A stretch of 39,565 bases of DNA from the sequence record DRR723986_10154. The stretch is one strand, 5' to 3'. The translations under genes were made by a program, and so were the position numbers. Below, piece after piece: positions 16,700-36,660 of the stretch. The notes under the pieces are model-generated. The model was not told where the DNA came from. It worked only from the letters and a program-made list of their open reading frames with translations, and ran no database searches. The first letter of the stretch is position 1. Each line of letters begins with the position of its first letter.

Positions 16700-16730
16700 T
16701 TGACTCTAAAGCTACTTTAGGGTTTTTAAT
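16700..16730 (+). promoter_or_regulatory. MerR-type promoter/operator
   Basis: -35 TTGACT (16700-16705), 19-bp spacer, -10 TTTAAT (16725-16730). Dyad ACTCTAAAG-CTA-CTTTAGGGT at 16703-16723. Confidence 0.88.
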
Positions 16731-16761
16731 GAATGTATTGCAATTTCACGAGGAGATCAAG

Positions 16762-17385: not shown

Positions 17386-17398
17386 TACTCTTACGCTC

Positions 17399-17764: not shown

Positions 17765-17850
17765 ACAAAACCTGAATTAACCACCCTTTGATGCCTTTTT
17801 GTGCAGGCTAAAAAAGGACAGTTCATCTGTTTTGTTTGGAGAAATACCCC

Positions 17851-19098: not shown

Positions 19099-19673
19099 AT
19101 AATATTGAGATCAACGTCATGAAACAGAGCAAATTTTTAACCAATGTATTGTCAGCCGCAGTGTTGGCCGGCTCGCTCATCTTCTCCACGACAGCTTACG
19201 CAGGCCCGGGTCACGACCATGGCGATGAAGCACCGGTTGCGGTGGGTGAAGCGTCGCCCCGCGTGGTCATGGAATCGGAATTGTTCGAGGCGGTTGGCAT
19301 TTTGAAAGGCCGCATGCTTGAAATTTACATTGACCATGCAGCCACCAATGCACCCGTACAAAACGCCAAGTTGGAGCTTGAACTGAATGGTCAACAAGTG
19401 CCTGTTGAACTGCACAGTGAAGGCGAATTTGATGCGCAGTTGCCCGAGGGAATCGAGGAAGGCACTGTGGCTGTCAGCATGACTGTATCCGCAGGCGACA
19501 ACATTGATCTTTTGGCGGGTGACCTGATTGTGGGTCATCACGATGACCTCGATAGTGTTGAAGAAGTGCAGTCACGTCTCTGGACAATAGTCTTGTACGG
19601 GATTGGTGGATTGTTGATTCTCGCGGTGATCGTGATCGGATATGTTCGTCTTAAATCAAAGGGAGACAAATAA
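19095..19673 (+). CDS. Periplasmic His-motif accessory protein with C-terminal TM anchor
   Basis: Signal peptide, then GPGHDHGDEAP, a beta-rich domain (SELFEAVGIL..IYIDHAATNAPV) and a C-terminal TM helix. ATGA overlap with the OMF gene. Confidence 0.75.
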   Translation: MNNIEINVMKQSKFLTNVLSAAVLAGSLIFSTTAYAGPGHDHGDEAPVAVGEASPRVVMESELFEAVGILKGRMLEIYIDHAATNAPVQNAKLELELNGQQVPVELHSEGEFDAQLPEGIEEGTVAVSMTVSAGDNIDLLAGDLIVGHHDDLDSVEEVQSRLWTIVLYGIGGLLILAVIVIGYVRLKSKGDK

Positions 19674-19675
19674 TC

Positions 19676-20788: not shown

Positions 20789-20800
20789 GGGGGCGTCGAC

Positions 20801-23800
20801 ATGTTTCAAATGTTATTGGACAGCAGCCTTAAAAACCGGCTGCTGGTACTACTCGGCGCGCTTATTTTGACCGTGTATGGGGCATATACGCTGACCCAAA
20901 CACCGGTTGATGTATTTCCTGATCTGAACAAACCAACGGTGACCGTGATTACTGAAGCGGGTGGTATGGCTTCGGAGGAGGTCGAACAATTAATTACGTT
21001 TCCTTTGGAAACAGCTTTGAACGGCCTTCCGGGTGTGGAGGTCATTCGCTCGGTATCCAGTGCCGGACTCTCGTTCATTTACGTGACTTTCAATTGGGAC
21101 ACTGAGATTTATCGTGCGCGTCAAATGGTGTCTGAGCGGCTTTCCAGCCTGGAAGAATCCATTCCTGCTGGCGTGGCGCCGGTGATGGGGCCGGTTAGCT
21201 CGATCATGGGCGAAATCATGCAAATTGCCATACCGATTGATTCGAGCAAGACCACACCCATGCAAGTGCGCGAGTATGCAGATTGGGTGCTTCGGCCTCG
21301 ATTGTTATCGATTCAAGGCGTGGCACAGGTGATCCCGATTGGTGGCGAAGTACGCCAGTTCCAGGTTCAACCAGATTTGCAGCGGATGGTGGATTTGGGC
21401 ATTACGATTGAGGATCTGCAGCAGGCCTTGAGCGGTTTTGCATCCAATACATCGGGCGGATTTTTGGCACTCAATGGCCGTGAGTACTTGATTCGAAACC
21501 TTGGAAGAACGTCGTCTTTGGAGGACCTTGCCAAGGTAGCCGTGGGTTCAAAAGATGGTGTGCCAGTGCTGCTCAAGCAAGTCGCCAAGGTTGATTTTGC
21601 GGCTGCAGTTAAACGGGGTGACGCCGGGTTTGAGGGCAAACCCGCTGTAATTTTGGGTGTGCAAAAGCAGCCAAGTGCCGACACCATTGCCTTGACCAAA
21701 AGGATTGAAGAAGCCCTGGTTTCCATGGGCAGCAGCTTGCCAGAAGGTATGGAAACGCCGCGTGTGACTTTCAGGCAGGCCAGTTTCATTGAAGCCTCAA
21801 TTTCTACCCTGCAAGGAAAGCTGATTGGCGCGTCGATATTTGTCGCTGCTGTGCTGTTTTTCTTTTTGGGTACGATTCGCCCGACCGTGATTGCACTGGT
21901 TGCCATTCCCGTGTCTATTTTCATCACGGCACTGGTGTTTGAGTATTTCGGGCTGTCCATCAACACCATGACGCTTGGCGGTTTGGCCATTGCCATTGGT
22001 GGTTTGGTCGATGATGCCGTGGTAGACGTAGAAAATATTCTTCGCCGCCTGAAGGAGCAAAGGGCCAAACACCCTGGTGTTGCTTTTGACCTGGTGGGCC
22101 TTGTGCGCAAGGCGTCCTTGGAAGTACGAACCGGCATTGTGTACGCCACGGTCATTATTGTGCTGGTGTTCATTCCACTGTTCGCATTGCCCGGTATTGA
22201 AGGCAAGTTGTTTGTTCCGCTGGGCATTGCATTTATCGTGTCTACCCTCGCATCGCTGGTAGTTTCGGTCACAGTAACGCCTGTGCTGTCTTATTACCTG
22301 TTGCCAGGCATTAAGGATCTTGACCATGGCGATACTCGCGTGTTGGCTTGGTTAAAGTCCAAGTACCAGGTTGGCTTGTCTGGAGTGCTCAATAACCCGA
22401 AAGCGGCAATCTGGGCGGGTGTGATTGCGGTAATTGTTGCAGGCGCATCTGTACCATTTTTCGCTAAAACATTCCTTCCGCCTTTCAATGAAGGCACCTT
22501 GCTGATCGGCATGCGCCTGAACCCTGGCGTAACCCTGGATGAATCCTCGAAATTGGCCTCACAGGCTGAAGTGTTGCTCAAAGACATTCCAGAAATTACG
22601 CACATCGGGCGGCGCAGTGGGCGTGCGGAGCTGGATGAGCATGCAGAGGGTGTGCATGTGTCCGAACTGGATTTGGGTTTGATTCCAGCCGGTGACATGA
22701 CACGACCCATGGCGGAGTTACAAGCGGAAATACGCGAACGACTCCAGAACTTGCCAGCGGCTATTGCTGTGGGGCAGCCAATCTCTCATCGAATTGACCA
22801 CATGCTCTCAGGTGTACGTTCGCAAATTGCGATCAAGGTGTTCGGGGAAGACTTGGATACCTTGCGTGGCACCGCTGAAACTCTGCGCGCAGAGTTATCA
22901 ACAATTGATGGGCTGGTTGACCTTGAAGTTGAGAAGCAGGTACTCGCACCAGAGATCAAGGTGCGGATTAACTACGATGCCGCATCCCGGTATGGTGTGT
23001 CTTCATCGGAAGTGTTGCACTCTCTACAGGCTTTGATTGAGGGCGAGAAAATCACTCAGGTGGTTGAAGGCAATCGTCGGTTTGCCCTGGTTTTGAAACT
23101 GGCAGAGAAAGACCGTAGCTTGGAGCAACTCAAGACCCTGCTGATACCGACCCCCTTGGGAGCAATTCCGCTGTCTGTTTTGGCGGACATTGAAGACAGT
23201 GATGGTCCCAACCAGATCAGCCGGGACGACGGGAAACGGCGAATTGTGATTTCTGCCAACGCCCAAGGCAGAGCGCTTTCTGAAGTGGTTGAAGACATTC
23301 GTACCACAGTTGCAAACACTGATTTGCCAGAAGGCTATTTCATTACCTTGGGCGGCCAGTTCGAAGCACAAGAAGAAGCCACACGGTTGGTGGGTTTCTT
23401 GTCCATTATTTCCCTGGTCCTGATGTTTGCGGTGCTTTACAGCCGTTATCAGTCGGTGCGCTTGTCGGCCATCATCATGGGCAATATTCCATTGGCCATG
23501 GTGGGCGCGGTTCTTGGCTTGTGGTTATCCGGACAGCCTTTGTCAGTGGCGGCGCTAATCGGGTTTATCACCCTGGCGGGCATTTCGGTACGAAACGGCA
23601 TTTTGAAGGTGAGCCACTACATCAACCTGATGCGATTCGAACACGAGCAGTTCACCCAGTCCATGATTGTGCGCGGATCGATGGAACGGTTAAGCCCCGT
23701 GTTGATGACGGCACTGGTTACTGCATTTGCCCTTGCACCTTTGCTGTTTGAAGCAGAGCGCCCGGGTACTGAAATTTTGCACCCGGTTGCAGTTGTAATT

Positions 23801-23920
23801 TTTGCTGGTCTGATCAGTTCAACCTTGCTGGATACCTTTTTAACGCCAGCATTGTTTTGGGTTTTTGGACGCAAAGACGCCGAAAGGTTAATGGAGCAAT
23901 CCGATGCTCAAGCACTGTAA
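20801..23920 (+). CDS. CusA/CzcA-family heavy-metal efflux RND permease
   Basis: PVDVFPDL, EEVEQLITFPLE, TM4 GLAIAIGGLVDDAVVDVEN, FLPPFNEG and ERLSPVLMTA; 1039 aa. Confidence 0.95.
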   Translation: MFQMLLDSSLKNRLLVLLGALILTVYGAYTLTQTPVDVFPDLNKPTVTVITEAGGMASEEVEQLITFPLETALNGLPGVEVIRSVSSAGLSFIYVTFNWDTEIYRARQMVSERLSSLEESIPAGVAPVMGPVSSIMGEIMQIAIPIDSSKTTPMQVREYADWVLRPRLLSIQGVAQVIPIGGEVRQFQVQPDLQRMVDLGITIEDLQQALSGFASNTSGGFLALNGREYLIRNLGRTSSLEDLAKVAVGSKDGVPVLLKQVAKVDFAAAVKRGDAGFEGKPAVILGVQKQPSADTIALTKRIEEALVSMGSSLPEGMETPRVTFRQASFIEASISTLQGKLIGASIFVAAVLFFFLGTIRPTVIALVAIPVSIFITALVFEYFGLSINTMTLGGLAIAIGGLVDDAVVDVENILRRLKEQRAKHPGVAFDLVGLVRKASLEVRTGIVYATVIIVLVFIPLFALPGIEGKLFVPLGIAFIVSTLASLVVSVTVTPVLSYYLLPGIKDLDHGDTRVLAWLKSKYQVGLSGVLNNPKAAIWAGVIAVIVAGASVPFFAKTFLPPFNEGTLLIGMRLNPGVTLDESSKLASQAEVLLKDIPEITHIGRRSGRAELDEHAEGVHVSELDLGLIPAGDMTRPMAELQAEIRERLQNLPAAIAVGQPISHRIDHMLSGVRSQIAIKVFGEDLDTLRGTAETLRAELSTIDGLVDLEVEKQVLAPEIKVRINYDAASRYGVSSSEVLHSLQALIEGEKITQVVEGNRRFALVLKLAEKDRSLEQLKTLLIPTPLGAIPLSVLADIEDSDGPNQISRDDGKRRIVISANAQGRALSEVVEDIRTTVANTDLPEGYFITLGGQFEAQEEATRLVGFLSIISLVLMFAVLYSRYQSVRLSAIIMGNIPLAMVGAVLGLWLSGQPLSVAALIGFITLAGISVRNGILKVSHYINLMRFEHEQFTQSMIVRGSMERLSPVLMTALVTAFALAPLLFEAERPGTEILHPVAVVIFAGLISSTLLDTFLTPALFWVFGRKDAERLMEQSDAQAL

Positions 23921-23946
23921 GTTTTTTTAACAAAAAGGAGATGAAA

Positions 23947-24339
23947 ATGAAATCAATCAAATTGCTGACAACAACTTTCGGTCTAGTTTTGGCCTTGAGT
24001 TCAGGTTTTGCTGTGGCACAGGAAAAAGATGAACACAAACTTGAGCCCAAACATGGCGGTGTAGTTGTTGAATCCAATCACATCGAGTATGAATTGGTGG
24101 TGAAGCCGGAAAATGTTCAATTGCATGCAGTTGATCACGGCAAGGTGATGGACTTGAGCAAGGCCAAGGCCAAAGTGGTGTTTCTGGTCGCTGGTCAAAA
24201 AATGGAAAGAACACTGGCGGGTCAGGGGGCGCTGTTGTCGGGTGAGGGTGTTGACTTGAAGGGCTCCGCCTACACCGCAGTGGCCACTGTGGAATTTGCC
24301 AACAAGAAGAAAGCCACAGTTCGATTTAAAACAAACTGA
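23947..24339 (+). CDS. Small periplasmic protein of metal-efflux clusters
   Basis: AAGGAG SD (ATG at 23941 or 23947), signal peptide, HKLEPKHGGVV motif and beta-rich body. Confidence 0.75.
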   Translation: MKSIKLLTTTFGLVLALSSGFAVAQEKDEHKLEPKHGGVVVESNHIEYELVVKPENVQLHAVDHGKVMDLSKAKAKVVFLVAGQKMERTLAGQGALLSGEGVDLKGSAYTAVATVEFANKKKATVRFKTN

Positions 24340-24348
24340 GTTTGGAAA

Positions 24349-24678
24349 ATGGAATTAATCAAATTTTCTGCATTGTTTGCAGTTACAGCCGTTTCTGAAA
24401 TTTTGGGCTGCTATTTGCCTTGGCTTATTTTGAAACAGGACAAGTCCCCATGGTTGTGGCTCCCAGCCATTGGGTTTCTTGTTCTGTTTGCCTGGCTGTT
24501 GACGTTGCACCCTTCGGCTGCCGGCCGCACGTATGCCGCCTATGGTGGCATGTATATTACGGTGGCTTTGCTCTGGCTTTACTGGGTTGAGGGGGTCAAT
24601 TTGACCCGATGGGATATTGTAGGCGCAGGCTTGGCCTTGGCGGGTATGGCGGTTATCATGTTGCAACCAAGCCCGTAG
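24349..24678 (+). CDS. ynfA: YnfA/UPF0060 family small membrane protein
   Basis: [30 protein letters not shown] and WDIVGA. Confidence 0.92.
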
Positions 24679-24679
24679 C

Positions 24680-24709
24680 GCGGGATTGAGCGCCAACTTT
24701 CAATCCCGC
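24680..24709. terminator. Hairpin closing the metal-efflux operon
   Basis: 10-bp stem GCGGGATTGA/TCAATCCCGC immediately after the ynfA stop; no clear U-tract. Confidence 0.45.
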
Positions 24710-25029
24710 CAAACCCCGAAGGCGGGTCAGTTACTTCAGATTTATTCAACGTCGGCTCAAAGCCAATTTGAAGGTTTTCTATGTTGAAGATATCTTGTTT
24801 ACTCTAGGAAATCAGACGAATTTTGTTCCGAAGTATTTTGGTTGCACGTCCCATAGCCATTTCCCGCAGAAAAGAACGATGTTCAAAAAACCTTCTTCCG
24901 TGGCAGGATTATCGATCGAAGCTGCCGGATAAGCACTTTAGCGAATACGGCGGCTTCGGCCGACAAGCGGAAGTAGTAATCAATGCATTAAGCTCATTTA
25001 TTGCTTTAAAGGTCGTTCTTTCGCGGGCG

Positions 25030-25731
25030 TTATTCAGGTTCGAACTGGTCAATCAGGCCCTTGGAATCAATCCTATTCTTCCCAACACCACTAACGCCAA
25101 ATCCTACAGCATGAAAATTCAAGTCGTCGCTACTAGAAATAAGTTGCCTTAGTGCTTTCACATCTTGATTCTTTGGATCTAACCACACAGCCCAATCCTC
25201 TTTCGAAATCATCACTGGCATGCGGTCGTGAACCCGCTTCAGTTTTTCGCTAGGTTCTGTTGTAATAATTGCAGTGCTCATGACAAGTTCACCACTCGTT
25301 TTATCGATCCAGTGATCACAAACGCCAGCCATCGCGAAATAGGGTGTTTCTTCGGGGTAAATGTAAAAGGGCTGTTTGCGGTTTCCACTCCCTTCAGGCG
25401 GTGCTTGCCATTCGAAGTAGCCACTTGCGGGAATTAAACAGCGAAACTTTTTGAAAGCTGTCCGAAAAGACGGTTTCTCATGAACAGTTTCTCCGCGAGC
25501 ATTATTCAATTTCGCACTTCCAAATTTATCTTTTGCCCAATGGGGAATCAGTCCCCAAACATGGTTGAGAATTACCCTTTCACCTTCTCGATTTATTCGC
25601 ACCACAGGTACCCATGTAGTGGGTGCAATGTTGTAGCTGTTCTTGAAGGGGCTCTCTTCTTCCGTATAACGTGCATCGAAATGTGCTGTTAACCGGGAAA
25701 CTGGTCCTTCAAGAACATACCGACCGCACAT
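25030..25731 (-). CDS. SOS response-associated peptidase (SRAP; YedK/HMCES family)
   Basis: Starts MCGRY (catalytic Cys2), then YNIAPT, WGLIPHW, NARGET, RCLIPASGYFEW and HDRMPV. Confidence 0.95.
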   Translation of the reverse strand: MCGRYVLEGPVSRLTAHFDARYTEEESPFKNSYNIAPTTWVPVVRINREGERVILNHVWGLIPHWAKDKFGSAKLNNARGETVHEKPSFRTAFKKFRCLIPASGYFEWQAPPEGSGNRKQPFYIYPEETPYFAMAGVCDHWIDKTSGELVMSTAIITTEPSEKLKRVHDRMPVMISKEDWAVWLDPKNQDVKALRQLISSSDDLNFHAVGFGVSGVGKNRIDSKGLIDQFEPE

Positions 25732-25735
25732 AGCG

Positions 25736-25945
25736 CTAATCCCGCTCGTCCACCAATTCAAATAAGTCGCCCACTTTGCAATCGAACAGCTTGCATAGGG
25801 CCTCTATTGCTGCCAAATCAACCCTCGTTGCGGTCTCATTGTAGAGCAAAGTAATCGTATTTCTGTTCAGTCCAGTGGCTCTCGCTACGTCTATGACTTT
25901 CAATTTTTGCTCGCCCATGAGCCTTGATAAGTGGCATTTAATCAT
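25736..25945 (-). CDS. XRE/Cro-C1 HTH repressor, 69 aa
   Basis: MIKCHLSRLMGEQKLKVIDVARATGLNRNTITLLY..IEALCKLFDCKVGDLFE; no peptidase domain. Confidence 0.88.
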   Translation of the reverse strand: MIKCHLSRLMGEQKLKVIDVARATGLNRNTITLLYNETATRVDLAAIEALCKLFDCKVGDLFELVDERD

Positions 25946-25959
25946 TTTAGATATCCAAA

Positions 25960-26047
25960 TGTCATTCAAGATGACAAAAATGCTTGACATATGTACTTTT
26001 AGATGGCAATATGTCACCCAGGATGAAGAAAAATCATCTGAAGTACA
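25960..26047. promoter_or_regulatory. Divergent control region with sigma70 promoter and 3-4 operator-like repeats
   Basis: TTGACA (25984-25989), 17 bp, then TGn-CAATAT (26007-26012). Repeats TGTCATTCAAGATGACA (25960), TGTACTTTTAGATGGCA (25992), TGTCACCCAGGATGAAG (26012) and a reverse copy at 26032-26047. Confidence 0.7.
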
Positions 26048-26072
26048 GAAAGTTTAACGCAATGGAGGCTAT

Positions 26073-26285
26073 ATGTCACAAACTTTTTTAACCACTGAAG
26101 AGCTATCGACACGGATCAAATATGACGTGCGCACTATCCGCGATCGTTTGAAAGATTCTGTTTTGCTGGAAGGTCGCCATTATTTTCGTCCTTTTGGTGG
26201 CCGCAAGATTTTGTATGTTTGGGAAGTGATTGAAGCTGATATGCAGAAAGCGGCGTCTACCAAATTGATGGCTTCGGGCTTCTAA
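26073..26285 (+). CDS. Excisionase-like winged-helix DNA-binding protein
   Basis: 70 aa, FLTTEELSTRIKYDVRTIR..EGRHYFRPFGGRKILY, GGAGG SD, directly upstream of the integrase. Confidence 0.75.
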   Translation: MSQTFLTTEELSTRIKYDVRTIRDRLKDSVLLEGRHYFRPFGGRKILYVWEVIEADMQKAASTKLMASGF

Positions 26286-26294
26286 GGGGACATC

Positions 26295-27749
26295 ATGGGA
26301 AGCGTACGCGCAAGAAAAGACAACGGTCAGCTTTTCCTTGATTTTAGATATCTTGGTGAGCGCTGTAGAGAACGATCTGTTTTGCCTGATTCGAAACAGA
26401 ATCGATACAAGCTTGAACATCTGATGAACCAGATTGAGTCTGAGATCAAAGCAGGGCAGTTTCGCTACAGAAATTACTTTCCAGGTAGTAGTCTGCTGGA
26501 AAAAATCGAAGCCCTTGAAACTCAACAATATCAACCGACTTCGCCAATGGTTTCCATTCCAATGGCCAACCAGTCGTTGCGCCAAGCGGTTGATAATATT
26601 TCCTCAGCAGGTCATCCCACCTTCACTGAATTTGCTCAGAAATTCATTGAAGAAAACGAATCGCTCTGGAAACGCTCGAACATCCGCACCAAGCGGGACA
26701 TTTTGGAAAAGTGGTTGATCCCACAGTTTGGAAAGAGGGTGATCAGCAGTATCACCAAACAGGACCTTCTGGAATTTCGCTCAGTTCTCGCCAAAGCCCC
26801 GGGCAAAAAACCAGGAACAACAATGTCAGCTTCACGGATAAATCATGTAATGACGTCTGTGAAGCAAGTCTTAGATGAAGCCGCTGATCGATTCAACTTT
26901 ACCACTCCGTACCAGAATATCAAACGGATGCGGATCAAAAAGACGGATGTCACACCCTTCACGATTGAAGAGGTGGAGATGATTATCAAGTACTGCCGCG
27001 AGGACTTTCGGGATTACTTCACGGTGAAGTTTTTCACGGGCATGCGCCCAGGCGAAATCCATGGGCTGAAGTGGAAGTACATCGATTTCGAAAAGCGCCT
27101 GATCACCATTCGCGAAACCATTGTGGATGACTATGAGGAAACGCCAAAGACAGCCGATTCCAACCGGGACATTCAAATGGCACCGCAGGTGTATGAAGCC
27201 CTCAAAACCCAATGGGAAGTCACTGGCAAAAGGTCGCCCTATGTATTTGCCAACGGCAACGGTGGCCCACTGACCAACCGCAACATGAGTAACCGGGTGT
27301 GGTATCCCATGCTGCGCTCACTGGGGTTAAAACTCCGCACACCCTATCAAACCCGGCACACCTTCGCCACGTTGATGCTGGCCGCAGGTGAATCACCGGA
27401 GTGGATCGCATTTCAGATGGGGCATTCGTCCACAGAAATGCTGTTCAAGGTGTACTCACGTTACGTACCCAATTTGACCCGTCGTGATGGCTCAGCGTTT
27501 GAGCGGATGTTGGCTGCCAACTTGGGTCCCGGTGTATCACCGCCGATTGCTCCGAGTTCTGTGGCGGTGGCGGAAAAGTCCTCTGTTTCGGAGGCCCTAG
27601 AGCAAGCCCAGCCACCACGAGTAGCCAAACCGGCACCCACATCCGCCGCGCCTGTTACCGGCGTGAATCAAGCTTCCAAACCTGCCATTCAAAGCCCATG
27701 GCTGCAAATGTTTGAAAGCTACCAAAACAAGAACACTCAGGGAGAATAA
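26295..27749 (+). CDS. int: Tyrosine integrase with N-terminal arm-binding (DUF3596-like) domain and long C-terminal tail
   Basis: LFLDFRYLGERCRE..IKAGQFRYRNYFPGS, then catalytic TGMRPGE, TPKT, YQTRHT, QMGH and KVYSRY. Confidence 0.93.
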   Translation: MGSVRARKDNGQLFLDFRYLGERCRERSVLPDSKQNRYKLEHLMNQIESEIKAGQFRYRNYFPGSSLLEKIEALETQQYQPTSPMVSIPMANQSLRQAVDNISSAGHPTFTEFAQKFIEENESLWKRSNIRTKRDILEKWLIPQFGKRVISSITKQDLLEFRSVLAKAPGKKPGTTMSASRINHVMTSVKQVLDEAADRFNFTTPYQNIKRMRIKKTDVTPFTIEEVEMIIKYCREDFRDYFTVKFFTGMRPGEIHGLKWKYIDFEKRLITIRETIVDDYEETPKTADSNRDIQMAPQVYEALKTQWEVTGKRSPYVFANGNGGPLTNRNMSNRVWYPMLRSLGLKLRTPYQTRHTFATLMLAAGESPEWIAFQMGHSSTEMLFKVYSRYVPNLTRRDGSAFERMLAANLGPGVSPPIAPSSVAVAEKSSVSEALEQAQPPRVAKPAPTSAAPVTGVNQASKPAIQSPWLQMFESYQNKNTQGE

Positions 27750-27751
27750 TC

Positions 27752-28903
27752 ATGATCAATCCAAAACTTCAAACCGGTAATATCTCTCTTAGCGCTCAAG
27801 CCGATAAAAAAACAGTCCGTTCAAGCCAAGGTATTCACGCCAACAAAGTTTGTGTTCAGAAAATGGTTCGCATCAATCCAGATGCTAATCAGCTTTTCAC
27901 TGGTGCTTTCTCTGGTCTGAATATGCCGCAGTTCGCAAAACTTGGTACTGGCATTTGCGTGGCCAAACATGGCTATGTTTCGCAAAGACAGCAGCGTGAG
28001 GGCGTAACTTACGTGAAGCTTGGTATACCGGTTTACGCTGCGGCTGATCAAATCTACCAAGGAATGCTGTTTGTAAACCTAGCCTGTAGTGGCGCAGATG
28101 GCCTGGGAGATCACTCGGTCGTGAAGGTTGTTCCCTCGTTGTGGGCCCGTGCTGTTGATGATGGTAAGAACTGCTGGGTGTCGGGATTGAGCCCAGCTGA
28201 GGGTGAGCCTGAATACAATCCTTTCGACTACGCAATAGCTCAATTGCCTTCCACGTTGAATCAAGCTGCAAGCACGGCAATCTGCGCTTCAAGTCTGTGC
28301 GAGTTCTTGAGTGAGGCGTTTCGATTGCTAACCCCCGAGGATCGTTCCCTTTATTTGGGAATCATGTTGCAGAGCAACCGCTTCTCCAGGTTCCTAAAGT
28401 ACGCGGCTTCAACACGCAGTCATCACAATGGCGATCACGGACTTGTGTTGCACACAGCAGAAACTGTGGCCAATGTTTTGCTTGGCTTTTTAGCGGCGTC
28501 GCCGTGGCAACGCAGCATAGGTAAACCCGCTTTTGACTTAAGTCTGACACTTCTTGCAGCACTCTTACATGATGCCGCCAAGGTGGACGATTACTACCGT
28601 CTTGCGCCAGACGTCTATTCTACAAATCTAAATTGCAAACTACTTGGCCATGAGCAAACCATGCTCAAGTGGATCGCAGCGGCTTGCTCTAATTCAGGGA
28701 ATTATCCACTTAAGCGTGAACTACAGCTTGAACATGCCATCTGCGCCGTGAAGCGACAGCATGATCAGTCGGGTGCTCGAAAGCGTAAAACTCCCGAGAG
28801 CTTTGTGTTGCACGAAGCTGATTGCGCAAGCGCGCGTGCATTCGATAAAGGTGAGAAAAGTGTCTTGCTGGCCCATCATTTTGTACGTGGAGAATCTGCA
28901 TGA
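27752..28903 (+). CDS. YhaM/CBF1-like HD-domain protein
   Basis: AASTRSHHNGDHGLVLHT, LLHDAAK, LLGH and KTPESFVLHEAD follow the YhaM motif order. The N-terminal ~150 aa is beta-rich and unassigned. Confidence 0.75.
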   Translation: MINPKLQTGNISLSAQADKKTVRSSQGIHANKVCVQKMVRINPDANQLFTGAFSGLNMPQFAKLGTGICVAKHGYVSQRQQREGVTYVKLGIPVYAAADQIYQGMLFVNLACSGADGLGDHSVVKVVPSLWARAVDDGKNCWVSGLSPAEGEPEYNPFDYAIAQLPSTLNQAASTAICASSLCEFLSEAFRLLTPEDRSLYLGIMLQSNRFSRFLKYAASTRSHHNGDHGLVLHTAETVANVLLGFLAASPWQRSIGKPAFDLSLTLLAALLHDAAKVDDYYRLAPDVYSTNLNCKLLGHEQTMLKWIAAACSNSGNYPLKRELQLEHAICAVKRQHDQSGARKRKTPESFVLHEADCASARAFDKGEKSVLLAHHFVRGESA

Positions 28904-30351
28904 ATAACCAGGGGCAGGGCAGCAAATATCCATTTGGTGAGACCGCTTTCCTACGGAGAGGGATTCCCCAACAGGAAAGTGTAGTTTGCAGTGAGTACTA
29001 CTACAGCGACTTGTGTGAAATTCTCATTCCTAGAAATCGACAAGAAGAGCTGCAAAGCAGAATGCAATTGCTTTCCAAGGATAAATTTATCAGGCAACTT
29101 AACAGTCTAGATTTTCATGAAGAACTTCATGATTTTTTTGACTCTCAGCGATTCGAAGAATTAAAGAAGAAGTGGTCTGACAATCCGAACGAGCACCCCA
29201 GTTGGGTATTTCAAGATGGTGGGGAGAAGAAAAATCACTCTCAAAAGGCGTTGAAAAAAGCAGAGAATCTCAAAGTTCCAGACTCTACGAGCTTGTTTCT
29301 TAAGCACTTGAAGGAGTGCATGAGTGATAGCAAAGCATACCTAAGGGCATATAAGGGTATGGCTCGGATCTTTACAGCCAGAGCCACATCAGAATTTGTC
29401 GAACAAATTGGTGAGGACCGTGAACGTATTGGTCGCTCCTGGCGGCTGTTTGTTTCAATGTCTCAAAACAACGGCTTTAGAAGAATTATCAAGCCCAGCA
29501 CGCCGATTGAAAAGCGGCTGCAAAACCTGCGATCTAACTTTCCAAATTTTGCACATGTCGTGGATCACGTGCTTAGGCAGATGCGAATCTGGTCTTTAAA
29601 AAGCTCTCATGAGCGAAGGCTCAAGCCAATTTTGCTGGATGGACCAAAGGGGACAGGTAAAAGCGCATTTGCTCGCGAATTGGCCGAGGCTCTGAACACC
29701 CGCTACGCGTATATAAACATCTCGGCCACATCAATGGGTGGGGTGCTGACAGGTACATCCAACAAATGGGGAAACGGTCAGACGGGTTTAATTTTCTCTG
29801 AATTGGCAAGAAGTGAAACAGCCTCGCCCCTTATTCTTCTCGATGAAATCGACAAGATGTCCTCATTTCAGCAGCACCCTGTTGAGGGGCCGTTGCTTGC
29901 AGCACTGGAGCCACAAACCGCCCGCGAATTGCGAGATGAATATGGGTCCATTGAGTTCGACGCTTCAAGGGTGATCTATGTCGCGACTTCGAATAATTTA
30001 AGTTCGGTTTCGGCCCCTCTTAGATCTCGGTTTGACGTATTTGATATTTCTTACCCTGATCGCAGCCAGAGATTGATCATTATTCGCAGCATGCTGGCGA
30101 AGGCCTATCGCAATGTCGATTTCGCACCGCAGGCTTTGAATTTTCTGGCAAGACAAGAAGGTGATCTTCGTTTGCTTCAGTCGATTTTGGATCGTGTGGT
30201 TGCCTGCCATGTTGATTTAACTCTTGCTCAGATGGGGTTGGGGCGAGGTGCAACGCTTCGTGGAAAACAGTTAATTCAGGAGCTCACGGTGAGGATCGCT
30301 TTGGAACAGATGGGGGCCAAGGTCAGGTTCTTTGATCACATTGAGGTGTGA
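28900..30351 (+). CDS. Lon-type AAA+ ATPase without protease domain
   Basis: Walker A GPKGTGKS, Walker B PLILLDEIDK, LLAALEP..DEY..FDASRVIYVATSN and Arg finger PLRSRF. Ends after the lid with no Ser-Lys protease domain. Confidence 0.88.
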   Translation: MNNQGQGSKYPFGETAFLRRGIPQQESVVCSEYYYSDLCEILIPRNRQEELQSRMQLLSKDKFIRQLNSLDFHEELHDFFDSQRFEELKKKWSDNPNEHPSWVFQDGGEKKNHSQKALKKAENLKVPDSTSLFLKHLKECMSDSKAYLRAYKGMARIFTARATSEFVEQIGEDRERIGRSWRLFVSMSQNNGFRRIIKPSTPIEKRLQNLRSNFPNFAHVVDHVLRQMRIWSLKSSHERRLKPILLDGPKGTGKSAFARELAEALNTRYAYINISATSMGGVLTGTSNKWGNGQTGLIFSELARSETASPLILLDEIDKMSSFQQHPVEGPLLAALEPQTARELRDEYGSIEFDASRVIYVATSNNLSSVSAPLRSRFDVFDISYPDRSQRLIIIRSMLAKAYRNVDFAPQALNFLARQEGDLRLLQSILDRVVACHVDLTLAQMGLGRGATLRGKQLIQELTVRIALEQMGAKVRFFDHIEV

Positions 30352-30468
30352 AGGCCGAGTGATCTCAGCGATGATCCGCGTTCGATATATCAAAAAAACT
30401 GTCCTCCCCTGATGCTCTGAAAAACGGAAGTGCATGGGGGAGGACTCAGTTCAGTAAGGAAGATTACG

Positions 30469-30882
30469 GTGAACAAAAAAACCGGCTCATCTGATAAAAC
30501 TAGCAATGAAAGGTTTGCACAGGAAAACCAAAAGTCGTCTACGCAAATTAAACAGGCGTACCAGTGGGGGGTCATTAAATATATCGACAAAGAAGGAGTG
30601 GTTTATCGATTGGTTTCGGCGCCTCATGATGGTGAAGATGCTGTCTGGAGTCTGAACTCCGGCATTCTTAGCTTCGAAATTCAGGATGGCTTCGTGGACT
30701 TTCACGGGTTTTCAGGGTCGATTTATCGTTGCAAATTTCAGGATCAAGGCTTCAGTCAGCAGATGTTAATAACCATCTTGGGCTGGAGGGCGACGGAGCT
30801 CGAGCTAGGAAATGATCTTGATTTGATGCCTTTCGCGTTGTTCTTGAGAGAGTGGGAGGCAAAAACGCCAAGGGTCATGTGA
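30469..30882 (+). CDS. Hypothetical protein, phage-like conserved motif
   Basis: AAGGA SD before GTG 30469; motif W.VIK..YR..WSLNSGI..FHGFSGSIYRC. Confidence 0.65.
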   Translation: MNKKTGSSDKTSNERFAQENQKSSTQIKQAYQWGVIKYIDKEGVVYRLVSAPHDGEDAVWSLNSGILSFEIQDGFVDFHGFSGSIYRCKFQDQGFSQQMLITILGWRATELELGNDLDLMPFALFLREWEAKTPRVM

Positions 30883-31174: not shown

Positions 31175-31483
31175 ATGCCTAACCGGAGGTTGTCCATGAG
31201 GAAGATTTTAGAAACACTGCGGCTGCGCGAACGGCTTGGGTTCACCAATCAGCAAATTGCTGAGGTCATCAAAGCCGGCCCCATCACCGCGTGAGACTAT
31301 CTGTGACGGGCCGAGATGGCCGCTATCGATTATTCAATTGGCGTTAAAATAGATGAGCAGCGCTTGTTTCCTCCTGCTTTGCCATCAAGCGTGAAGCGCC
31401 CACAACCGAACTCGGCTTTCATTCACAGCGAATTGAAACGCAAACACGTCATACTCGATTTGCTGTGGCGCGAGTACAAGTAA
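31175..31483 (+). pseudogene. istA: IS21-family transposase istA N-terminal fragment
   Basis: MPNRRLSMRKILETLRL..TA*DYL*RAE.. then frameshift to ..RLFPP..IHSELKRKHVILDLLWREYK*. Matches the IS408/IS1162-type IstA N-terminus, with stops. Confidence 0.85.
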
Positions 31484-31660: not shown

Positions 31661-32689
31661 TCAGGAGGCAAGTTCAGTGTTTTTTCGAATAGCAAGGGGA
31701 GAGCGCCCAAAGTGACGCCTGCAGAATCTGACTAAAGTGGCCTGTTCGGAAAACCCTAGGATAGAGGATAGGTGAGACATAGAAACTTCCGTCTCGGTGA
31801 GATATCGAATCGCTTCTTGACAAATGATTTGTGTCTTTATTTGATCAAAAGAAGTGCCTTCATCAGACAAATGCCGTTGCAAAGTTCTTGGGTGAATCGC
31901 CAACAGGTTAGCAACTGCAGATTTGTCGCACACTGTTCTTCCAAGTATTTTTTTGATTACTTGGGCAGTCCTCGCTGAATAAGTTCCACGGAGGCTTCGG
32001 AAATTGGTTTGAATGTGTAGATCTACGATGTGACTAAGCTCAATATTGGGCTTATCGAGCCGAGTTGCCAGAGTCGAATTACTCAAGAGTAGTGCTGCTT
32101 TGTCACGATCAAACTCAACAGGAGCACCAAAGAATCGATCATAAACTTCATGGTGATTTTTCGAACCATGAGGCAAGATTACTTTAGTCAATTGATAATT
32201 ATCGCCTGCCAGAATCTTTATAAAACGGTGAAGATTGCCCAAGCAAATATCCAAGGTTTGTGTGTGGACTATCGGCTTTCCCAAATTAATTGAAATACTT
32301 ACCCAGCTATTGAACGAGGACCTTTGAGGCAGTGACGGTTCCGGAAAACTGTCAATCTCAATTGCTGGGCTCATGATGTCAATATGTTTGGCTGCGTATT
32401 CAACTGCCTCGCGCACTGTGGGCAAATTGCTGATTACCAGCGAAAGCGGGCCTAGGATGCTGATGTCGTGATACGGAGACATGCTTAAACCGAGACAGGG
32501 AAGATTCTTCGCTCTGGCGGCGTATTCGAGCATCTTGACAAAGTCATCTATCGGGACGAACTCGTTGTCTTGATTCGCAAGGTCTAGGTCCAGACCAAAC
32601 CGCGAAGCAATTTCGCGAGCATCACTACCACTACTGCTCAATACCTCAAGAAATCCCAACATGACCGTCGATCTAAGTAAAAGACTCAT
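31661..32689 (-). CDS. AraC-family regulator (OruR/ArgR-like, ~340 aa)
   Basis: LGPLSLVISNLPTVREA, FFGAPVEFD, and double HTH (VANLLAIHPRTLQRHL; LGFSEQATLVRFCRRHFGRSP). Confidence 0.92.
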   Translation of the reverse strand: MSLLLRSTVMLGFLEVLSSSGSDAREIASRFGLDLDLANQDNEFVPIDDFVKMLEYAARAKNLPCLGLSMSPYHDISILGPLSLVISNLPTVREAVEYAAKHIDIMSPAIEIDSFPEPSLPQRSSFNSWVSISINLGKPIVHTQTLDICLGNLHRFIKILAGDNYQLTKVILPHGSKNHHEVYDRFFGAPVEFDRDKAALLLSNSTLATRLDKPNIELSHIVDLHIQTNFRSLRGTYSARTAQVIKKILGRTVCDKSAVANLLAIHPRTLQRHLSDEGTSFDQIKTQIICQEAIRYLTETEVSMSHLSSILGFSEQATLVRFCRRHFGRSPLAIRKNTELAS

Positions 32690-32690
32690 T

Positions 32691-32727
32691 TGTCTCCAAA
32701 GGTCAAAAAATAGTCTTCAATGGTCAA
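32691..32727 (+). promoter_or_regulatory. Tandem AraC-type binding repeats, 21-bp period
   Basis: TGTCTCCAAAGGTCAA (32691-32706) and AGTCTTCAATGGTCAA (32712-32727) lie between the divergent araC and binding-protein genes. Confidence 0.7.
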
Positions 32728-32791
32728 GAGTATATGTTTTTACCAATGTAATAATCAAATGAAATATTAAAACCATATGGAGACAATAACG

Positions 32792-33850
32792 ATGAAATTT
32801 ACTACCCGCGTTGGCCGCAAAAAACTTTGGGCAATTCTGCTCGCAAGCTCATTCAGCTTATCCGCCCAAGCACAGCAGGGTAATCAAAAATTATGTGTAT
32901 ATGATCTTTTAGGTGCTGCGGGTGATATTTTTGCCATGGCTAAAGACTATGAAGTTGCCTCTAAAGCTTGGGGCGGCAACGTCAAAATTCATGCTTACAC
33001 GGATGAGCGAATTGCCACTCAAGACTTTATCGCGGGTGAATGTGATGCAGTGTTTGCGACTGGTTTCCGTACCCGTCAATTCAACGCCATCACTACATCT
33101 ATTGACTCACTGGGCGCATCCTCAATCGTCAAAGACGGCAAGGTGGACATGAACGCCAGTTACGAAGTAGTACGTCGCGCAATTCAGGTATTTTCCTCAC
33201 CAAACTCCACAAAAACCGCAATCAATGGAAAATTTGAGATCGCCGGTATTATCCCTTTTGGGACGGCTTACCCAGTGCTGAACGATCGAAAAATCCAGAC
33301 CGTTGAAGATCTTGCTGGCAAGAAAATTGCAGCTTTTGACTATGACAAGGCACAGGCCGTGATGATCCAGAAAATTGGTGCTCAACCAGTTTCTGCAGAT
33401 ATCACCAACTTCGCCAGCAAGTTCAACAATGGCATTGTTGACATGATTGCAGCACCAGCCGCCGCATATAAACCGCTAGAACTCTATCGAGGCATTGGCA
33501 CCAAAGGTGCTATCAATCGTTTTCCGATTGTGATCTTGAGCTATCAGATGGTGATCAACACCAGCAAGTTTCCGGTCGGCTTTGGACTTGAGTCAAGAAA
33601 GTATTGGAGCGGTCAGTATGATCGTGCTTTGAAATTGATTCTTCGAGCAGAGCAAACAATTCCAGAGAAAACATGGAGTGACCTGACCCCTGAAAACATG
33701 ATTAAGTACACCATCATGTTGAGGGAAAGCAGGGGGTCGATTGTCGAGCAAGGCATATACGACAAGCAGGGTTTGAGCATCATGAAGAAAATCCGGTGCA
33801 GTGTGAATCGGGCGGACTCAGAATGCACACCTGACAGCAAAACGTTCTGA
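32792..33850 (+). CDS. Putative periplasmic solute-binding protein (DUF6091/AdeT-like, DctP-like fold)
   Basis: Signal peptide, LCVYDLLGAAGD, AYTDERIA..F.AGECDA, FASKFNNG..D..AAP..Y.PLELYRG and C-terminal KIRC..EC. Confidence 0.75.
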   Translation: MKFTTRVGRKKLWAILLASSFSLSAQAQQGNQKLCVYDLLGAAGDIFAMAKDYEVASKAWGGNVKIHAYTDERIATQDFIAGECDAVFATGFRTRQFNAITTSIDSLGASSIVKDGKVDMNASYEVVRRAIQVFSSPNSTKTAINGKFEIAGIIPFGTAYPVLNDRKIQTVEDLAGKKIAAFDYDKAQAVMIQKIGAQPVSADITNFASKFNNGIVDMIAAPAAAYKPLELYRGIGTKGAINRFPIVILSYQMVINTSKFPVGFGLESRKYWSGQYDRALKLILRAEQTIPEKTWSDLTPENMIKYTIMLRESRGSIVEQGIYDKQGLSIMKKIRCSVNRADSECTPDSKTF

Positions 33851-33862
33851 TAGTTGACCAGT

Positions 33863-33899
33863 CCGATATGTGACGAGAAAGGATCATATCGGCCTTTTT
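33863..33899 (+). terminator. Possible intrinsic terminator
   Basis: Stem CCGATATG/CATATCGG followed by CCTTTTT after the binding-protein stop. Confidence 0.45.
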
Positions 33900-34044
33900 A
33901 TCTCCTGGTCTCAACCCACCCAAGCCACTCAAATCAGTCTCTGTAAGCATCTTGAGACTGCCGCTTGTTGGCGATATACAAAAGCTGGTTTATGTCTTGC
34001 ACTCAGTGAAATGCAATACGACCTCATTTCCCGACGGATATAAC

Positions 34045-35532
34045 ATGAACAAAAAAATACAGTACTGCCCAAACTTCAAGATGCTAATTGTAGGCGCATT
34101 GACAGCAACCCCAATTCTATCTTTTTTGTCGAGCAAAGCATATGCGGGAGGAACCGCATTTGATGCAACCTCAATCAGTTCTATGGGAAGTGCCAATGCG
34201 GGGATGGCTGCCGAAGCAGGTGACGCATCTGTTCTATTTGCGAACCCTGCTGCATTGACCAGACTCAAAAGAGCGGAAGTTGTACTTGGCGCTGCATTTG
34301 TTGGTATCAACACCTCTTACACCTCCGGTCAAACACCGGATGGATCTCCAACGAACAGCGGCACTACAGGCAGCGCTGGGCAGGAATTCAATCGAAAAAG
34401 TGGATACGATTCAACTGCCCTTGCGCCCAACCTGTTCGTAGCAATTCCAATTACTAAAAAACTCGTTGTTGGTTTCGGAGGGGCCGCCTCCCATGCACTG
34501 ATTGTTCGCTACGATGAAAATTTTCCGGGACGCAACCAAGGCCGCGATATTGACTTTAAGGTCAGCCGGGCAAACCTTGGGTTTGGCTACAAACTTACTC
34601 CGACTTTGTCGATTGGCGCCAATGGATCTTATGAGCGATACTTTCAATCCCTTAAGCTGAAACTGAACTATCGGGATGCCGTTGATGGGCTGTTGAACAA
34701 TGGGTCAACACTTCTTGATGGGTTGAATGCCGCTGGGCTGGCACCGCCTATTCCTGAAGAAGCTGATTTAAGTTTGCGAATGTTCGGTTGGGCATTCAAT
34801 GCACAAGCCGGCGCGCTTTGGGAACCCACGATCAATACACGAATTGGTATTTCCTATCGACCGAAAACGGAATTCACCGGTATGCGTGGCAAACTGAAAA
34901 TACAGGAAACAGCGGAGGGTGCTGAGTTCAGGGAGTTCCTTAATGGAGGACTGATCGGGGTATCAGGTCCTTTACTCGGTGTGAACGGACCGCAGGCTGC
35001 TGGCGACTTGCTTCCGGAGCAACGAATCAAGCAAGACATCACGTTGCCGGATGAGCTTCGCTTGAGTATTTTTCATCATGCTAGCCCCAAACTTGATCTA
35101 ATGGCCAGCTACACGCGTCAGGACTTTTCGGTGACAAATCTTAAATTTGTTCGGGAATCGAATGGGCGGGTACTTCAAGAGATTCAACAAAATTATGTAG
35201 CAGCCAACAGCTATCGCGTTGGTCTTAATTATAAAGCATTCAAACGCCTCGTTTTAAAAGCTGGCTACGCAGTAGAGAACAGCGTAATTGATGATGACAC
35301 ACGAATTACACTGTTACCCGACTCAGACAGACAATACTTTGGCTTAGGAGCACAACTTGAGTTGCGACGGGATACCACACTGAATTTCTCATATATGAAA
35401 TTTGACCTGGAGCCAGGCGCAACCGGTGCCAACGGGCAAGTCAGCCCTGCTGAAGTAAGGGGGGGCGATTTTCAGGGTACAACCAAACTTGACATCGACT
35501 TTTTTGGTGTAAGCATCACCGAGCGATTCTAA
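34045..35532 (+). CDS. OmpP1/FadL/TodX-family outer membrane transporter
   Basis: Hatch motif SMGSANAGMAAEAGDASVLFANPA, ITLPD, LPDSDR and terminal Phe. Confidence 0.88.
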   Translation: MNKKIQYCPNFKMLIVGALTATPILSFLSSKAYAGGTAFDATSISSMGSANAGMAAEAGDASVLFANPAALTRLKRAEVVLGAAFVGINTSYTSGQTPDGSPTNSGTTGSAGQEFNRKSGYDSTALAPNLFVAIPITKKLVVGFGGAASHALIVRYDENFPGRNQGRDIDFKVSRANLGFGYKLTPTLSIGANGSYERYFQSLKLKLNYRDAVDGLLNNGSTLLDGLNAAGLAPPIPEEADLSLRMFGWAFNAQAGALWEPTINTRIGISYRPKTEFTGMRGKLKIQETAEGAEFREFLNGGLIGVSGPLLGVNGPQAAGDLLPEQRIKQDITLPDELRLSIFHHASPKLDLMASYTRQDFSVTNLKFVRESNGRVLQEIQQNYVAANSYRVGLNYKAFKRLVLKAGYAVENSVIDDDTRITLLPDSDRQYFGLGAQLELRRDTTLNFSYMKFDLEPGATGANGQVSPAEVRGGDFQGTTKLDIDFFGVSITERF

Positions 35533-35547
35533 AGGGCAGGCATCGAC

Positions 35548-36579
35548 ATGATAGTGATACAAAAACTGACAAAAAAACTCTTGGTCTTTGGAACTGCAGC
35601 AATATTGACTGGTTGTTCCAGCATTCAGGGCGGCATCACAAACTTTGCTATTGACATCGTGGAAGACCGAATTGTGCCACCTATTCTTGAACTGAACGAT
35701 GTAGACATGGGTTGCCAGTTTGCCACCAGCGGCTTTCCTCTAATATCAGGTGCCACGCGAGCGTTCTATGGCGACCCAGCGTTATTGGAATCATTGTTGT
35801 ACACCACATCCGCAGTGTGTTCTGAGAAGCGCTCTGTTGATGAGGAACTTCGTTATCTGCGAGCCACACGCGCGAATCAAATTTCAGATGCACAAGATGC
35901 CCGAATTGCACAAAAGCGCCTTCTTGAGATCACCGCAAGACGACAGTTCTCGGCATTCAAGGTTATGCGCAGTCATTTGGAGGAGAAGTATGATTTTGAA
36001 TACGGCAAAACATGCCCAAATTTTGAGCGTGATTACGATGAACTTACCTTCATATTAGGGACAGTCGCAGGCCTGCAGGCAGTGATCAACGACATCGCAT
36101 CTCAGCAAATGGTCGGCGTTCCAACTGATATAGCACCATTGTCTGAACGGGCCTTGAAATGCGTTTCCAACACCAAATGGTGGGGGGTCCCTCTCGCAGC
36201 AAGATCTGTCGTTTGGAACATCCTGCCTGGCGGGGCAGAAGGCAAAGACGTCTGGGGCAGTTTCAATCGCTCAATGTTGATTGGCGAGCGAAGCGGTGTG
36301 CGATTGGCACACGTGATGTACGCAATATCGGCGCAGGCGGCTGGGGACGAAAAGCGTTTCAGGGATGCTACTAAACGTTGGGCAGCGGCGCAGAATTTTA
36401 AGCCGAGCAAGCAGTATCGCTTGGTCGAGGACATATCCACACTCACGATGATTAATCTTTCAGATCGCTACTGGTCAGCAAATATCGGTACACGTACACC
36501 GATAGCGTCAATTGGAACTTACTGGGACGAATCAAATTCTGCCGCCCAAGATATTGATTTGGGAGACCTGCTTGAGTAA
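35548..36579 (+). CDS. Conserved hypothetical helical lipoprotein
   Basis: Lipobox ILTGC; helical body with several Cys; motifs D.DMGC, KWWGVP and SDRYW...GTRTP. Confidence 0.75.
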   Translation: MIVIQKLTKKLLVFGTAAILTGCSSIQGGITNFAIDIVEDRIVPPILELNDVDMGCQFATSGFPLISGATRAFYGDPALLESLLYTTSAVCSEKRSVDEELRYLRATRANQISDAQDARIAQKRLLEITARRQFSAFKVMRSHLEEKYDFEYGKTCPNFERDYDELTFILGTVAGLQAVINDIASQQMVGVPTDIAPLSERALKCVSNTKWWGVPLAARSVVWNILPGGAEGKDVWGSFNRSMLIGERSGVRLAHVMYAISAQAAGDEKRFRDATKRWAAAQNFKPSKQYRLVEDISTLTMINLSDRYWSANIGTRTPIASIGTYWDESNSAAQDIDLGDLLE

Positions 36580-36660
36580 CAAAAATGAAGTCTCTGCAAC
36601 TTGTTGCTTAAAATGTTAGCTTTACAAATCAAAAAGAGTTCAGATAAGTTGACAGACTTC

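Follow-up and report, generated by a model that had tools for sequence, protein, structure and literature searches.

What do an HD-domain protein and an AAA+ ATPase do in an operon with an integrase gene? The question is raised by the genes between nucleotide positions 26073 and 30882 of a 39,565-nt stretch of sequence record DRR723986_10154. We refer to this whole stretch, at its full length, as the window, and use the labels L### and G### for loci and genomes, respectively. An earlier note on the window had read its xis-like, int, HD and AAA+ genes as one coupled unit that it did not recognise as a named system. We observed that the core of conservation is the XRE gene together with xis-int-HD, which recurs across six genera, and not a set of four equal genes: HD is a broadly conserved partner of the integrase, and AAA+ was found only in Limnobacter-type loci. 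We tentatively regard the locus, which is from the water bacterium Limnobacter, as the core operon of a tRNA-integrating genomic island family of Burkholderiales, with a possible role in excision-coupled processing of single-stranded DNA (ssDNA). An integrase is the only known mobility function of most genomic islands; in this case, one enzyme family is linked to the integrase gene in six genera, and the islands concerned carry metal-resistance, catabolic and anti-phage cargo.

The integrase operon and its conservation

The features of the operon and its control region are as follows.

25736-25945 (to 26017 if read from an upstream GTG), minus strand: candidate repressor of the XRE/Cro type (Pfam HTH_26, E 3.3e-20)
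25946-26072, no strand: divergent control region with candidate operators (36-nt direct repeat)
26073-26285, plus strand: xis-like protein, 70 aa, ATG start, directly upstream of int
26295-27749, plus strand: tyrosine integrase (Int) with arm-binding domain, 484 aa (Pfam, PHROGs)
27752-28903, plus strand: YhaM-like protein with HD domain and putative OB fold, candidate metal-dependent nuclease, 383 aa (fold and profile matches)
28900-30351, plus strand: LonA-type AAA+ ATPase without protease domain, 483 aa (sequence and fold matches)
30430-30882, plus strand: small open reading frame (ORF) at the end of the cassette, 150 aa if started at GTG 30430

The ORF listing of the window gave the plus-strand order xis-like, int, HD, AAA+ and small ORF, and agreed with the earlier note in its ORFs and in the spacing of the genes. 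The xis-like and int genes are separated by 9 nt (26286-26294) and int and HD by 2 nt (27750-27751); the AAA+ ATG is at 28900 and the HD stop codon ends at 28903, so that the stop is TGA and the 4-nt overlap of the two genes reads ATGA. Judged by this layout, a single operon for xis-int-HD-AAA+ is plausible, and because the arrangement recurs in every related locus examined it is far beyond chance. The XRE gene is divergent from the operon and adjoins xis in all loci that have upstream sequence. The spacer between XRE and xis measures 127 nt, the two copies of the direct repeat (25945-25980 and 25997-26032) are 75% identical, and the region also shows a TTGACA at 25985 and a promoter-like site on the minus strand at 26079-26051. 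The "single XRE-controlled promoter" of the earlier note was an assumption that gained nothing from a consensus scan, in which promoter-like and terminator-like sites in the operon were no more numerous than in shuffled sequences.

Int matched Arm-DNA-bind_2 (5e-21), SAM-like and Phage_integrase (4.5e-19) in Pfam, and the integrase family PHROG_1 (1.4e-67). The xis-like protein had no match in Pfam, NCBIfam or PHROGs; its Atlas neighbours include HTH_17 and excisionase clusters (score 0.94), which we take as a lead only. It is 60-99% identical across all related loci and stands invariably immediately upstream of int.

Relatives of HD are held by 9 genome records, all of Limnobacter and together representing 8 loci (L008 and L009 are one locus, split by contig ends), and close relatives by 12 metagenome loci. 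In a neighbourhood survey by tblastn with the window proteins, int lay directly upstream of HD in 19/20 of these Limnobacter-type loci, and AAA+ directly downstream of HD in all 18 that reach that far. It should be noted that the near-duplicates L001/L002/L014, L003/L018, L019/L020, L021/L022 and L006/L007 lower the number of independent lineages in these counts. For Limnobacter-type loci, the claim that the four genes form one coupled and conserved unit, with HD accompanying both AAA+ and this integrase, was therefore upheld.

Outside Limnobacter, the same claim stood for one part of the unit and failed for the other. Among 401 sampled genomes of the order, 8 hold an HD relative at E <=1e-15, and these represent six genera and five families. 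XRE and xis-int-HD were present in 8/8 loci, from six non-Limnobacter genomes of five genera, with int 47-51% identical to that of the window and with int and HD either overlapping or 12 nt apart by ORF coordinates. AAA+ followed HD in 0/8. This absence rests on inspection of the loci, as a profile search with AAA+ over the 401 genomes, which gave partial AAA matches in 76 of them and scored just 3 candidates per genome, cannot count absence. In place of AAA+, HD is followed in the other genera by a type I restriction-modification system, UmuDC, a Fic protein or unrelated small ORFs. We also inspected 75 loci of ordinary YhaM-like genes, none of which (0/75) has such integrase or island genes nearby; the int-HD linkage is therefore specific to this clade.

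The small ORF of the window probably starts at GTG 30468, as in L015, which would give a protein of 137 aa. Its counterparts in L001, L014 and L015 show 89-99% identity, and those in L003, L004 and L017-L020 show 36-38%. No family match was found in Pfam, NCBIfam, PADLOC or PHROGs, and its earlier description as "phage-like" is thus unsupported.

The HD and AAA+ proteins

By sequence and by modelling, HD is a YhaM-like protein with an HD domain and a putative OB fold, and a nuclease candidate with intact active-site motifs; the likeness to YhaM accords with the earlier assignment. Its Pfam HD match is below threshold (19.1 bits, with a cut-off of 22), and by phmmer it matches the YhaM structure 9h3f of the Protein Data Bank (PDB) with E 0.0038. 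A fold model built from 15 homologues (predicted local distance difference test score, pLDDT, 75; predicted template modelling score, pTM, 0.80) had YhaM 9h3f as its sole significant PDB fold match in Foldseek (E 9.4e-07, TM 0.67), and hhalign against OB-HD YhaM-like proteins gave a 100% probable match (E 3.2e-40) over 269 columns that cover OB, linker and HD, starting at residue 72. In the model, residues 68-125 form a five-strand beta region with pLDDT 84-91; this region has weak Foldseek matches to OB proteins such as AspRS and RecO (E 0.025-0.1), and the protein has no Pfam tRNA_anti-codon match. Residues S220, H224, H234, H273, D274, K277, Y281, H300 and D357 are invariant in 16 sequences. 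Among these are the metal ligands H234, H273, D274, H300 and D357, which make up a complete metal-binding motif, and the Ser/His cluster is invariant too.

The likeness to YhaM, the protein of Bacillus subtilis that corresponds to Cbf1 of Staphylococcus aureus, lies in the two-domain layout, in which a probable beta-barrel at the N-terminus is followed by a C-terminal HD domain whose metal motif is extended. In contrast to YhaM, the N-terminus of the island HD protein is unstructured, and the protein has a QSGxRKRKTxE motif specific to its family as well as a beta-hairpin with the invariant Y281; also, YhaM is a housekeeping gene, whereas the island HD gene sits in the integrase operon of a proteobacterial island. 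We considered and rejected the possibility that HD is a YhaM ortholog, as it scored 15.4 bits against the NCBIfam equivalog PRK13480, for which the cut-off is 460; it is related to YhaM only distantly. When 1.84 billion representatives were searched with the HD profile, 593 proteins came up at E <=0.001 and just 10 at <=1e-30. When 55 remote relatives were scanned with Pfam, the majority had an HD domain and 4 had a tRNA_anti-codon OB fold. In PMC12107432, YhaM is described as an ssDNA-specific 3'-deoxyribonuclease that forms a hexameric ring and is required in transformation to process incoming single strands; the B. subtilis protein appears there as a metal-dependent hexamer with 3'-to-5' exonuclease activity on ssDNA and RNA. 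As a separate observation, the HD gene behind int at L120:1441-2453 is present as two ORFs (127 and 220 aa), which may reflect a frameshift or an assembly error.

The same domain could also be read as that of a nickase or relaxase of an unconventional HD type, resembling the HD-based catalytic core of the MOBH protein TraI, in which case the islands would be mobilizable by a conjugative helper. The core PAS-x-HH...GL-x-H-T-x-E...LHD-x-GK of HD is common to TraI_2 (hhalign 96.8%, E 2.3e-10), and the likeness to MOBH TraI includes the N-terminal half of the HD catalytic core, an "alternative 3H"-like Ser/His cluster and the HD-x-x-K motif. An OB fold would suit ssDNA; a mob gene beside int and xis is the usual layout of integrative mobilizable elements; and G001, the nearest genome, has a true TraI_2 relaxase elsewhere (C11, contig 11) that could be the helper's. 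For TraI itself, PMC6736028 reports that these motifs are essential for oriT cleavage and proposes a hydrolytic mechanism. However, the alignment of HD with TraI_2 extends over only 71 of about 320 columns, ordinary YhaM-like proteins match TraI_2 equally well, and the full-length match of HD is to YhaM proteins of the exonuclease type. Weak TraI_2 matches occurred in 12/55 of the remote relatives and were limited to profile positions ~15-118. The window protein has no Pfam TraI_2 match (E 0.01) and no TraI_2_C match, and it lacks the disordered linker and the C-terminal domain of TraI; the residue at the position of TraI Y212, as read by eye from the alignment, is not tyrosine; and the sequence beside the gene revealed no inverted repeat that resembles an oriT. 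Membership of HD in MOBH was rejected on the 71-column alignment and the missing Pfam match, and a relaxase role of any kind appears very improbable to us.

The AAA+ protein is, on sequence and model evidence, a protease-less Lon-type ATPase with intact ATPase motifs, as the earlier note had supposed. It matched PDB Lon chains at 6.7e-21 over residues 223-399 (phmmer), its fold matched LonA and LONP1 at E about 1e-12 (Foldseek), and it scored 85.8 bits against TIGR00763 lon, for which the cut-off is 608. In Pfam there was no match to Lon_C (PF05362), the protein ending at residue 483, and none to the LON N-terminal substrate domain (PF02190). The model resembles LonA in having AAA+ alpha/beta and small helical domains with a preceding helical region, and the motifs GPxGxGKS, LLDEIDK, ATSN and PLxSRF are LonA-like. 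Invariant in 17 sequences are K254 of Walker A, D315/E316 of Walker B, N365, R377, R424 and the pore-loop residue W290; the invariant motif classes comprise Walker A, Walker B, sensor 1, arginine finger, sensor 2 and the pore-loop tryptophan. Unlike LonA, the island protein ends ~80 residues past the AAA+ module and has N-terminal 220 residues of its own, with residues 1-28 and 98-114 disordered in the model. Its pore loop, NKWGNGQ, differs from that of Lon, which contains a Tyr.

Outside Limnobacter, we noted Lon-like protease-less AAA+ proteins of 391-419 aa that are 29-36% identical to that of the window. In 3/4 loci examined (L137:1082-3026, L138:112-2453 and L140:157-2392) they adjoin a calcineurin-like phosphoesterase (Metallophos), and this partner matches half the model of the PADLOC candidate PDC-S10 with E 1e-8 to 1e-17. 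In L137, the pair is followed by a gene with a Swiss-Army-Knife HAD domain. Possibly, the AAA+ and phosphoesterase genes constitute an undescribed two-gene module.

A possible role for the HD-AAA+ cassette

Now that the layout of the operon, its conservation, the identity of the domains and the integrity of the active-site motifs have been shown, what might its products do for the island? As regards the substrate and timing of HD, its physical contact with AAA+ and the benefit to the island, we infer the following course of events. Lifting of the repressor would allow Xis and Int to excise the island, and HD would be made in the same burst. As a YhaM-like, Mn2+/metal-dependent 3'-to-5' nuclease on ssDNA, it would act on the island's own single-stranded intermediate, whether this came from replication or from helper transfer. 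A hexamer of AAA+ would use ATP to remodel either the nuclease ring or the recombinase-DNA complex, by loading, unloading or restraining it; AAA+ would be a lineage-specific remodeller of Limnobacter that evolves with HD as one cassette. We favour ssDNA processing because HD appears to keep the YhaM architecture, keeps the ligands and, being translationally coupled to int, would be produced with Int. Moreover, since the island has no replication or transfer genes of its own (see below), HD is the only candidate DNA-processing enzyme in its core besides Int, and the strict int-HD linkage favours a core role.

A more elaborate form of this proposal, which we consider doubtful, would make the YhaM-like nuclease a hitherto unrecognised third core component beside Int and Xis, needed to convert the excised island to a single-stranded intermediate of transfer or replication, or to recover it from such a form. 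In Limnobacter it would be driven or gated by a Lon-derived ring in which the nuclease, acting in trans, has taken the place of the protease, the whole being an ATP-powered nuclease-unfoldase machine of element-specific types. If HD proves to be needed for excision, maintenance or transfer, the operon would represent a new kind of island core and HD would be a marker for such islands.

The HD and AAA+ genes vary among islands as a unit, and this variation bears on a competing explanation. By pairwise identities at 13 loci, the 2 proteins fall into the same five groups, between which HD is 36-61%, AAA+ 36-53% and Int 66-91% identical; the identity matrices of HD and AAA+ are correlated with a Mantel rho of 0.88 (p 2e-4). 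In L004 and L021, Int is ~90% identical to that of the window and HD just 54-57%, and in L015 Int is nearest to L019/L020, with HD-AAA+ nearest to the window. The DNA homology of the window to L003, L004 and L021 falls at 27763-27771, just inside HD, and its homology to L015 stops at 30882, which is the small ORF stop. A more distant pair (HD 32%, AAA+ 39%) lies behind a 73% identical Int in L025. Two genomes that have two islands each carry different types in them (L004 and L005 in one assembly, L002 and L008/L009 in another). Judging from these comparisons, HD-AAA(-orfX) varies as one cassette, is reassorted relative to Int and exists in at least five discrete types.

Such behaviour is what might be expected if HD and AAA+ were an induced conflict module, composed of a nuclease effector and an ATPase sensor or regulator and directed against phages, plasmids or rival islands. 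It would be switched on with excision, and would serve defence, counter-defence or competition among islands that use the same tRNA site. The co-varying types with their comparatively constant Int, the homology break at the int/HD junction, the different types in two-island genomes and the phosphoesterase neighbours of the AAA+ relatives are all consistent with this explanation, as are the defence-rich cargo nearby and a DEDDh exonuclease gene (RNase_T family) behind the cassette in some islands. The latter, a second 3'-5' exonuclease added to the operon, follows the small ORF in L003 (L003:13025-13597), L017 (L017:3757-4365), L018 and L019 (L019:11014-11631), loci of one HD-AAA type, and a shortened copy is present in L004 (L004:13211-13597). 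Yet HD keeps its place beside int in all members from the six genera, unlike true defence cargo, which is variable, and the 2 genes lie within the xis-int operon behind the repressor instead of having a promoter of their own. In PADLOC-DB 2.0 (2023 library), HD had 0 matches, as did HD of the other genera, and AAA+ had generic AAA matches only, in the P-loop region (TRIP13 1.6e-07, PDC-S01 1.6e-05, IetA about 1e-3). Also, HD had no tblastn match among 50,697 phage and 72,556 plasmid records. On balance, a conflict role seems to us somewhat unlikely, though it must be taken seriously; were it correct, the islands would contain a new defence or competition system with expression tied to excision. 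Either way, the Limnobacter pairing would be a natural case of a Lon ATPase re-used without its protease.

Several observations weigh against excision-coupled ssDNA processing, the role that we prefer. HD and AAA+ diverge much faster than Int and are reassorted relative to it; a recombinase partner seldom behaves in this way, whereas conflict or specificity genes typically do. Beyond Limnobacter, the AAA+ proteins most closely related pair with a calcineurin-like phosphoesterase that has a partial match to a PADLOC candidate; taken with the fast, type-wise co-divergence, this pairing with another phosphoesterase favours a conflict role. As HD occurs without AAA+ in other genera, AAA+ is not essential to the basic function. 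L023 is an exception to the int-HD linkage: its HD gene (L023:6926-8130; 55% identical, on a contig that ends inside or just past HD) directly follows an XRE-like gene, and xis and int were not detected. Inspection of repeats and homology found no origin, oriT or iterons adjoining the module genes, and nothing experimental or predicted ties HD to the island's own DNA.

The island around the operon

The surroundings of the operon include 3 further features.

15831-15906, plus strand: tRNA-Arg(CCG), integration target and left end of the island (ARAGORN)
15907-24957, no strand: variable cargo slot from the tRNA to the module, here with a CDF transporter and a czc-type RND efflux operon
25030-25731, minus strand: SRAP (YedK/HMCES-type) gene (Pfam SRAP, E 2.5e-65; start MCGRY)

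The same tRNA-Arg(CCG) gene is found near XRE in L001-L003, L005-L007 and L018, at distances of 0.3-9 kb, with 0.3 kb in L003 and L018. In other genera the module stands beside tRNA-Pro or tRNA-Arg, with its XRE side toward the tRNA. In G001, 25 nt of the tRNA 3' end recur as a repeat some 39 kb from the tRNA, and in G013 and G005 the tRNA flank abuts a gene that in G001 lies beyond the island and the repeat; the latter 2 genomes therefore show empty sites, and the island is a real insertion. Searches of the window for a right-hand attachment (att) site, based on direct repeats, on the tRNA 3' end with <=3 mismatches and on short-word BLAST, found none, the window ending short of the position of the right att repeat known from G001. 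Loose contig ends at the tRNA were considered as a signal of excision and discarded, as they stem from other organisms that share the tRNA. We also observed a cluster of GTGCCCA, repeated x6 in direct and inverted orientation, at 15998-16081 just past tRNA-Arg and likewise in L001, L002 and L006. As candidate arm sites for the integrase these repeats were rejected, since they are missing in L003 and L018 and are not a general feature.

The earlier note had seen no relaxase, type IV secretion system (T4SS), capsid or Rep gene, and a scan of the window and the rest of the island gave the same result. Relaxase, coupling protein, T4SS, replication and capsid genes were not found among the ORFs scanned in the window and in L001 and L010, the latter 2 together spanning the G001 island. 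Nor were primase/replicase, packaging or capsid-hijack genes found, the PHROGs matches being limited to integrase, regulator and clamp-loader-like AAA. A TrbM fragment of 98 aa was seen in L006 only.

In the tRNA 3'-end target, the direct repeat, the divergent XRE switch, the gene resembling a recombination directionality factor beside int and the hot spot of defence and resistance cargo, these islands resemble P4-like, PICI-like and pipolin-type defence islands (for pipolins, PMC11551731). Unlike them, they have no primase/replicase, PolB, packaging or capsid-redirecting genes; in place of these, the core has an OB-HD nuclease candidate and, in Limnobacter, a Lon-type ATPase. No name for the system emerged from PADLOC, from the plasmid or phage collections or from the literature, and the earlier note too had recognised none; full-text searches, covering literature other than subscription journals, found no integrase-YhaM-like or integrase-HD-Lon-type-ATPase module described. 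What is new here is a tRNA-integrating island core with a YhaM-like nuclease candidate and, in Limnobacter, a protease-less Lon ATPase.

The SRAP gene forms a coupled pair with XRE, the XRE stop being at 25736 and the SRAP start at 25731, 5 nt behind the stop. The pair is recurrent in related islands, SRAP being kept in L001, L002, L006, L008, L015 and L019-L022; in L005 and L007, a UmuD-UmuC pair adjoins the XRE gene in place of SRAP. These neighbours suggest a further explanation, namely that HD, with AAA+ where present, is an excision-coupled stabilisation or addiction function, or an accessory of DNA-damage tolerance, outside recombination and transfer. UmuD-UmuC also stands directly behind HD in L118, and 4/55 of the remote HD relatives (P0234, P0255, P0283 and P0285) are fusions of OB-HD to a C-terminal S24 peptidase of the LexA/UmuD type, which hints at DNA damage control of this nuclease family. 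In B. subtilis, yhaM belongs to the SOS regulon, and toxin-antitoxin modules likewise show type-wise diversity. However, there is no conserved antitoxin-like partner, the small ORFs behind HD or AAA+ being unrelated between genera when compared, and a cargo role would leave the translational coupling to int over large distances unexplained. We regard this explanation as improbable.

The homology of the window to L001 and L002 ends at 16121 and returns at 24958, so defining the cargo slot, in which a Cation_efflux match lies at 16729-17385. The slot is filled differently in other loci. That of L001 (L001:1982-7207) contains an OLD-family nuclease, Bflower and Peptidase_U49; elsewhere (L004:569-7556, L005:3449-7389, L008:1519-6975) we found an ORC-CDC6-like gene with PRTase-CE and a methylase, or UmuDC, or RelA_SpoT, DUF4238 and Mrr.

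Almost all of the 5-kb module stretch is present in 13 DNA data sets, which belong to 12 studies. Pieces of int, HD and AAA+ are covered by contigs of two metatranscriptomes (one study) and one transcriptome, and an RNA-library contig at 28721-29165 crosses the HD/AAA+ junction. Transcription of int-HD-AAA+ is weakly indicated by these contigs, for which DNA carry-over is possible. The RNA contigs (X14, X15, X18) leave 24916-26217 (SRAP, XRE and the start of xis) without cover, which proves nothing.

The right arm of the island contains genes for AraC regulators, a FadL-type porin, P450, and ferredoxin and its reductase, together with a remnant of IS21. The last is probably an insertion sequence remnant just right of the conserved module, at 31197-31483, where two short frames, read by eye, look like the N-terminus of a transposase of the IS21 family. 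Over window positions 31661-39448 and in L010, the arm encodes AraC regulators, a FadL/TodX porin and an aldehyde dehydrogenase, to which G001 adds P450, ferredoxin, reductase and desaturase-like genes. Together they form a hydrocarbon-oxidation cluster, and this cluster is located away from tRNA-Arg in G012, G014 and G026.

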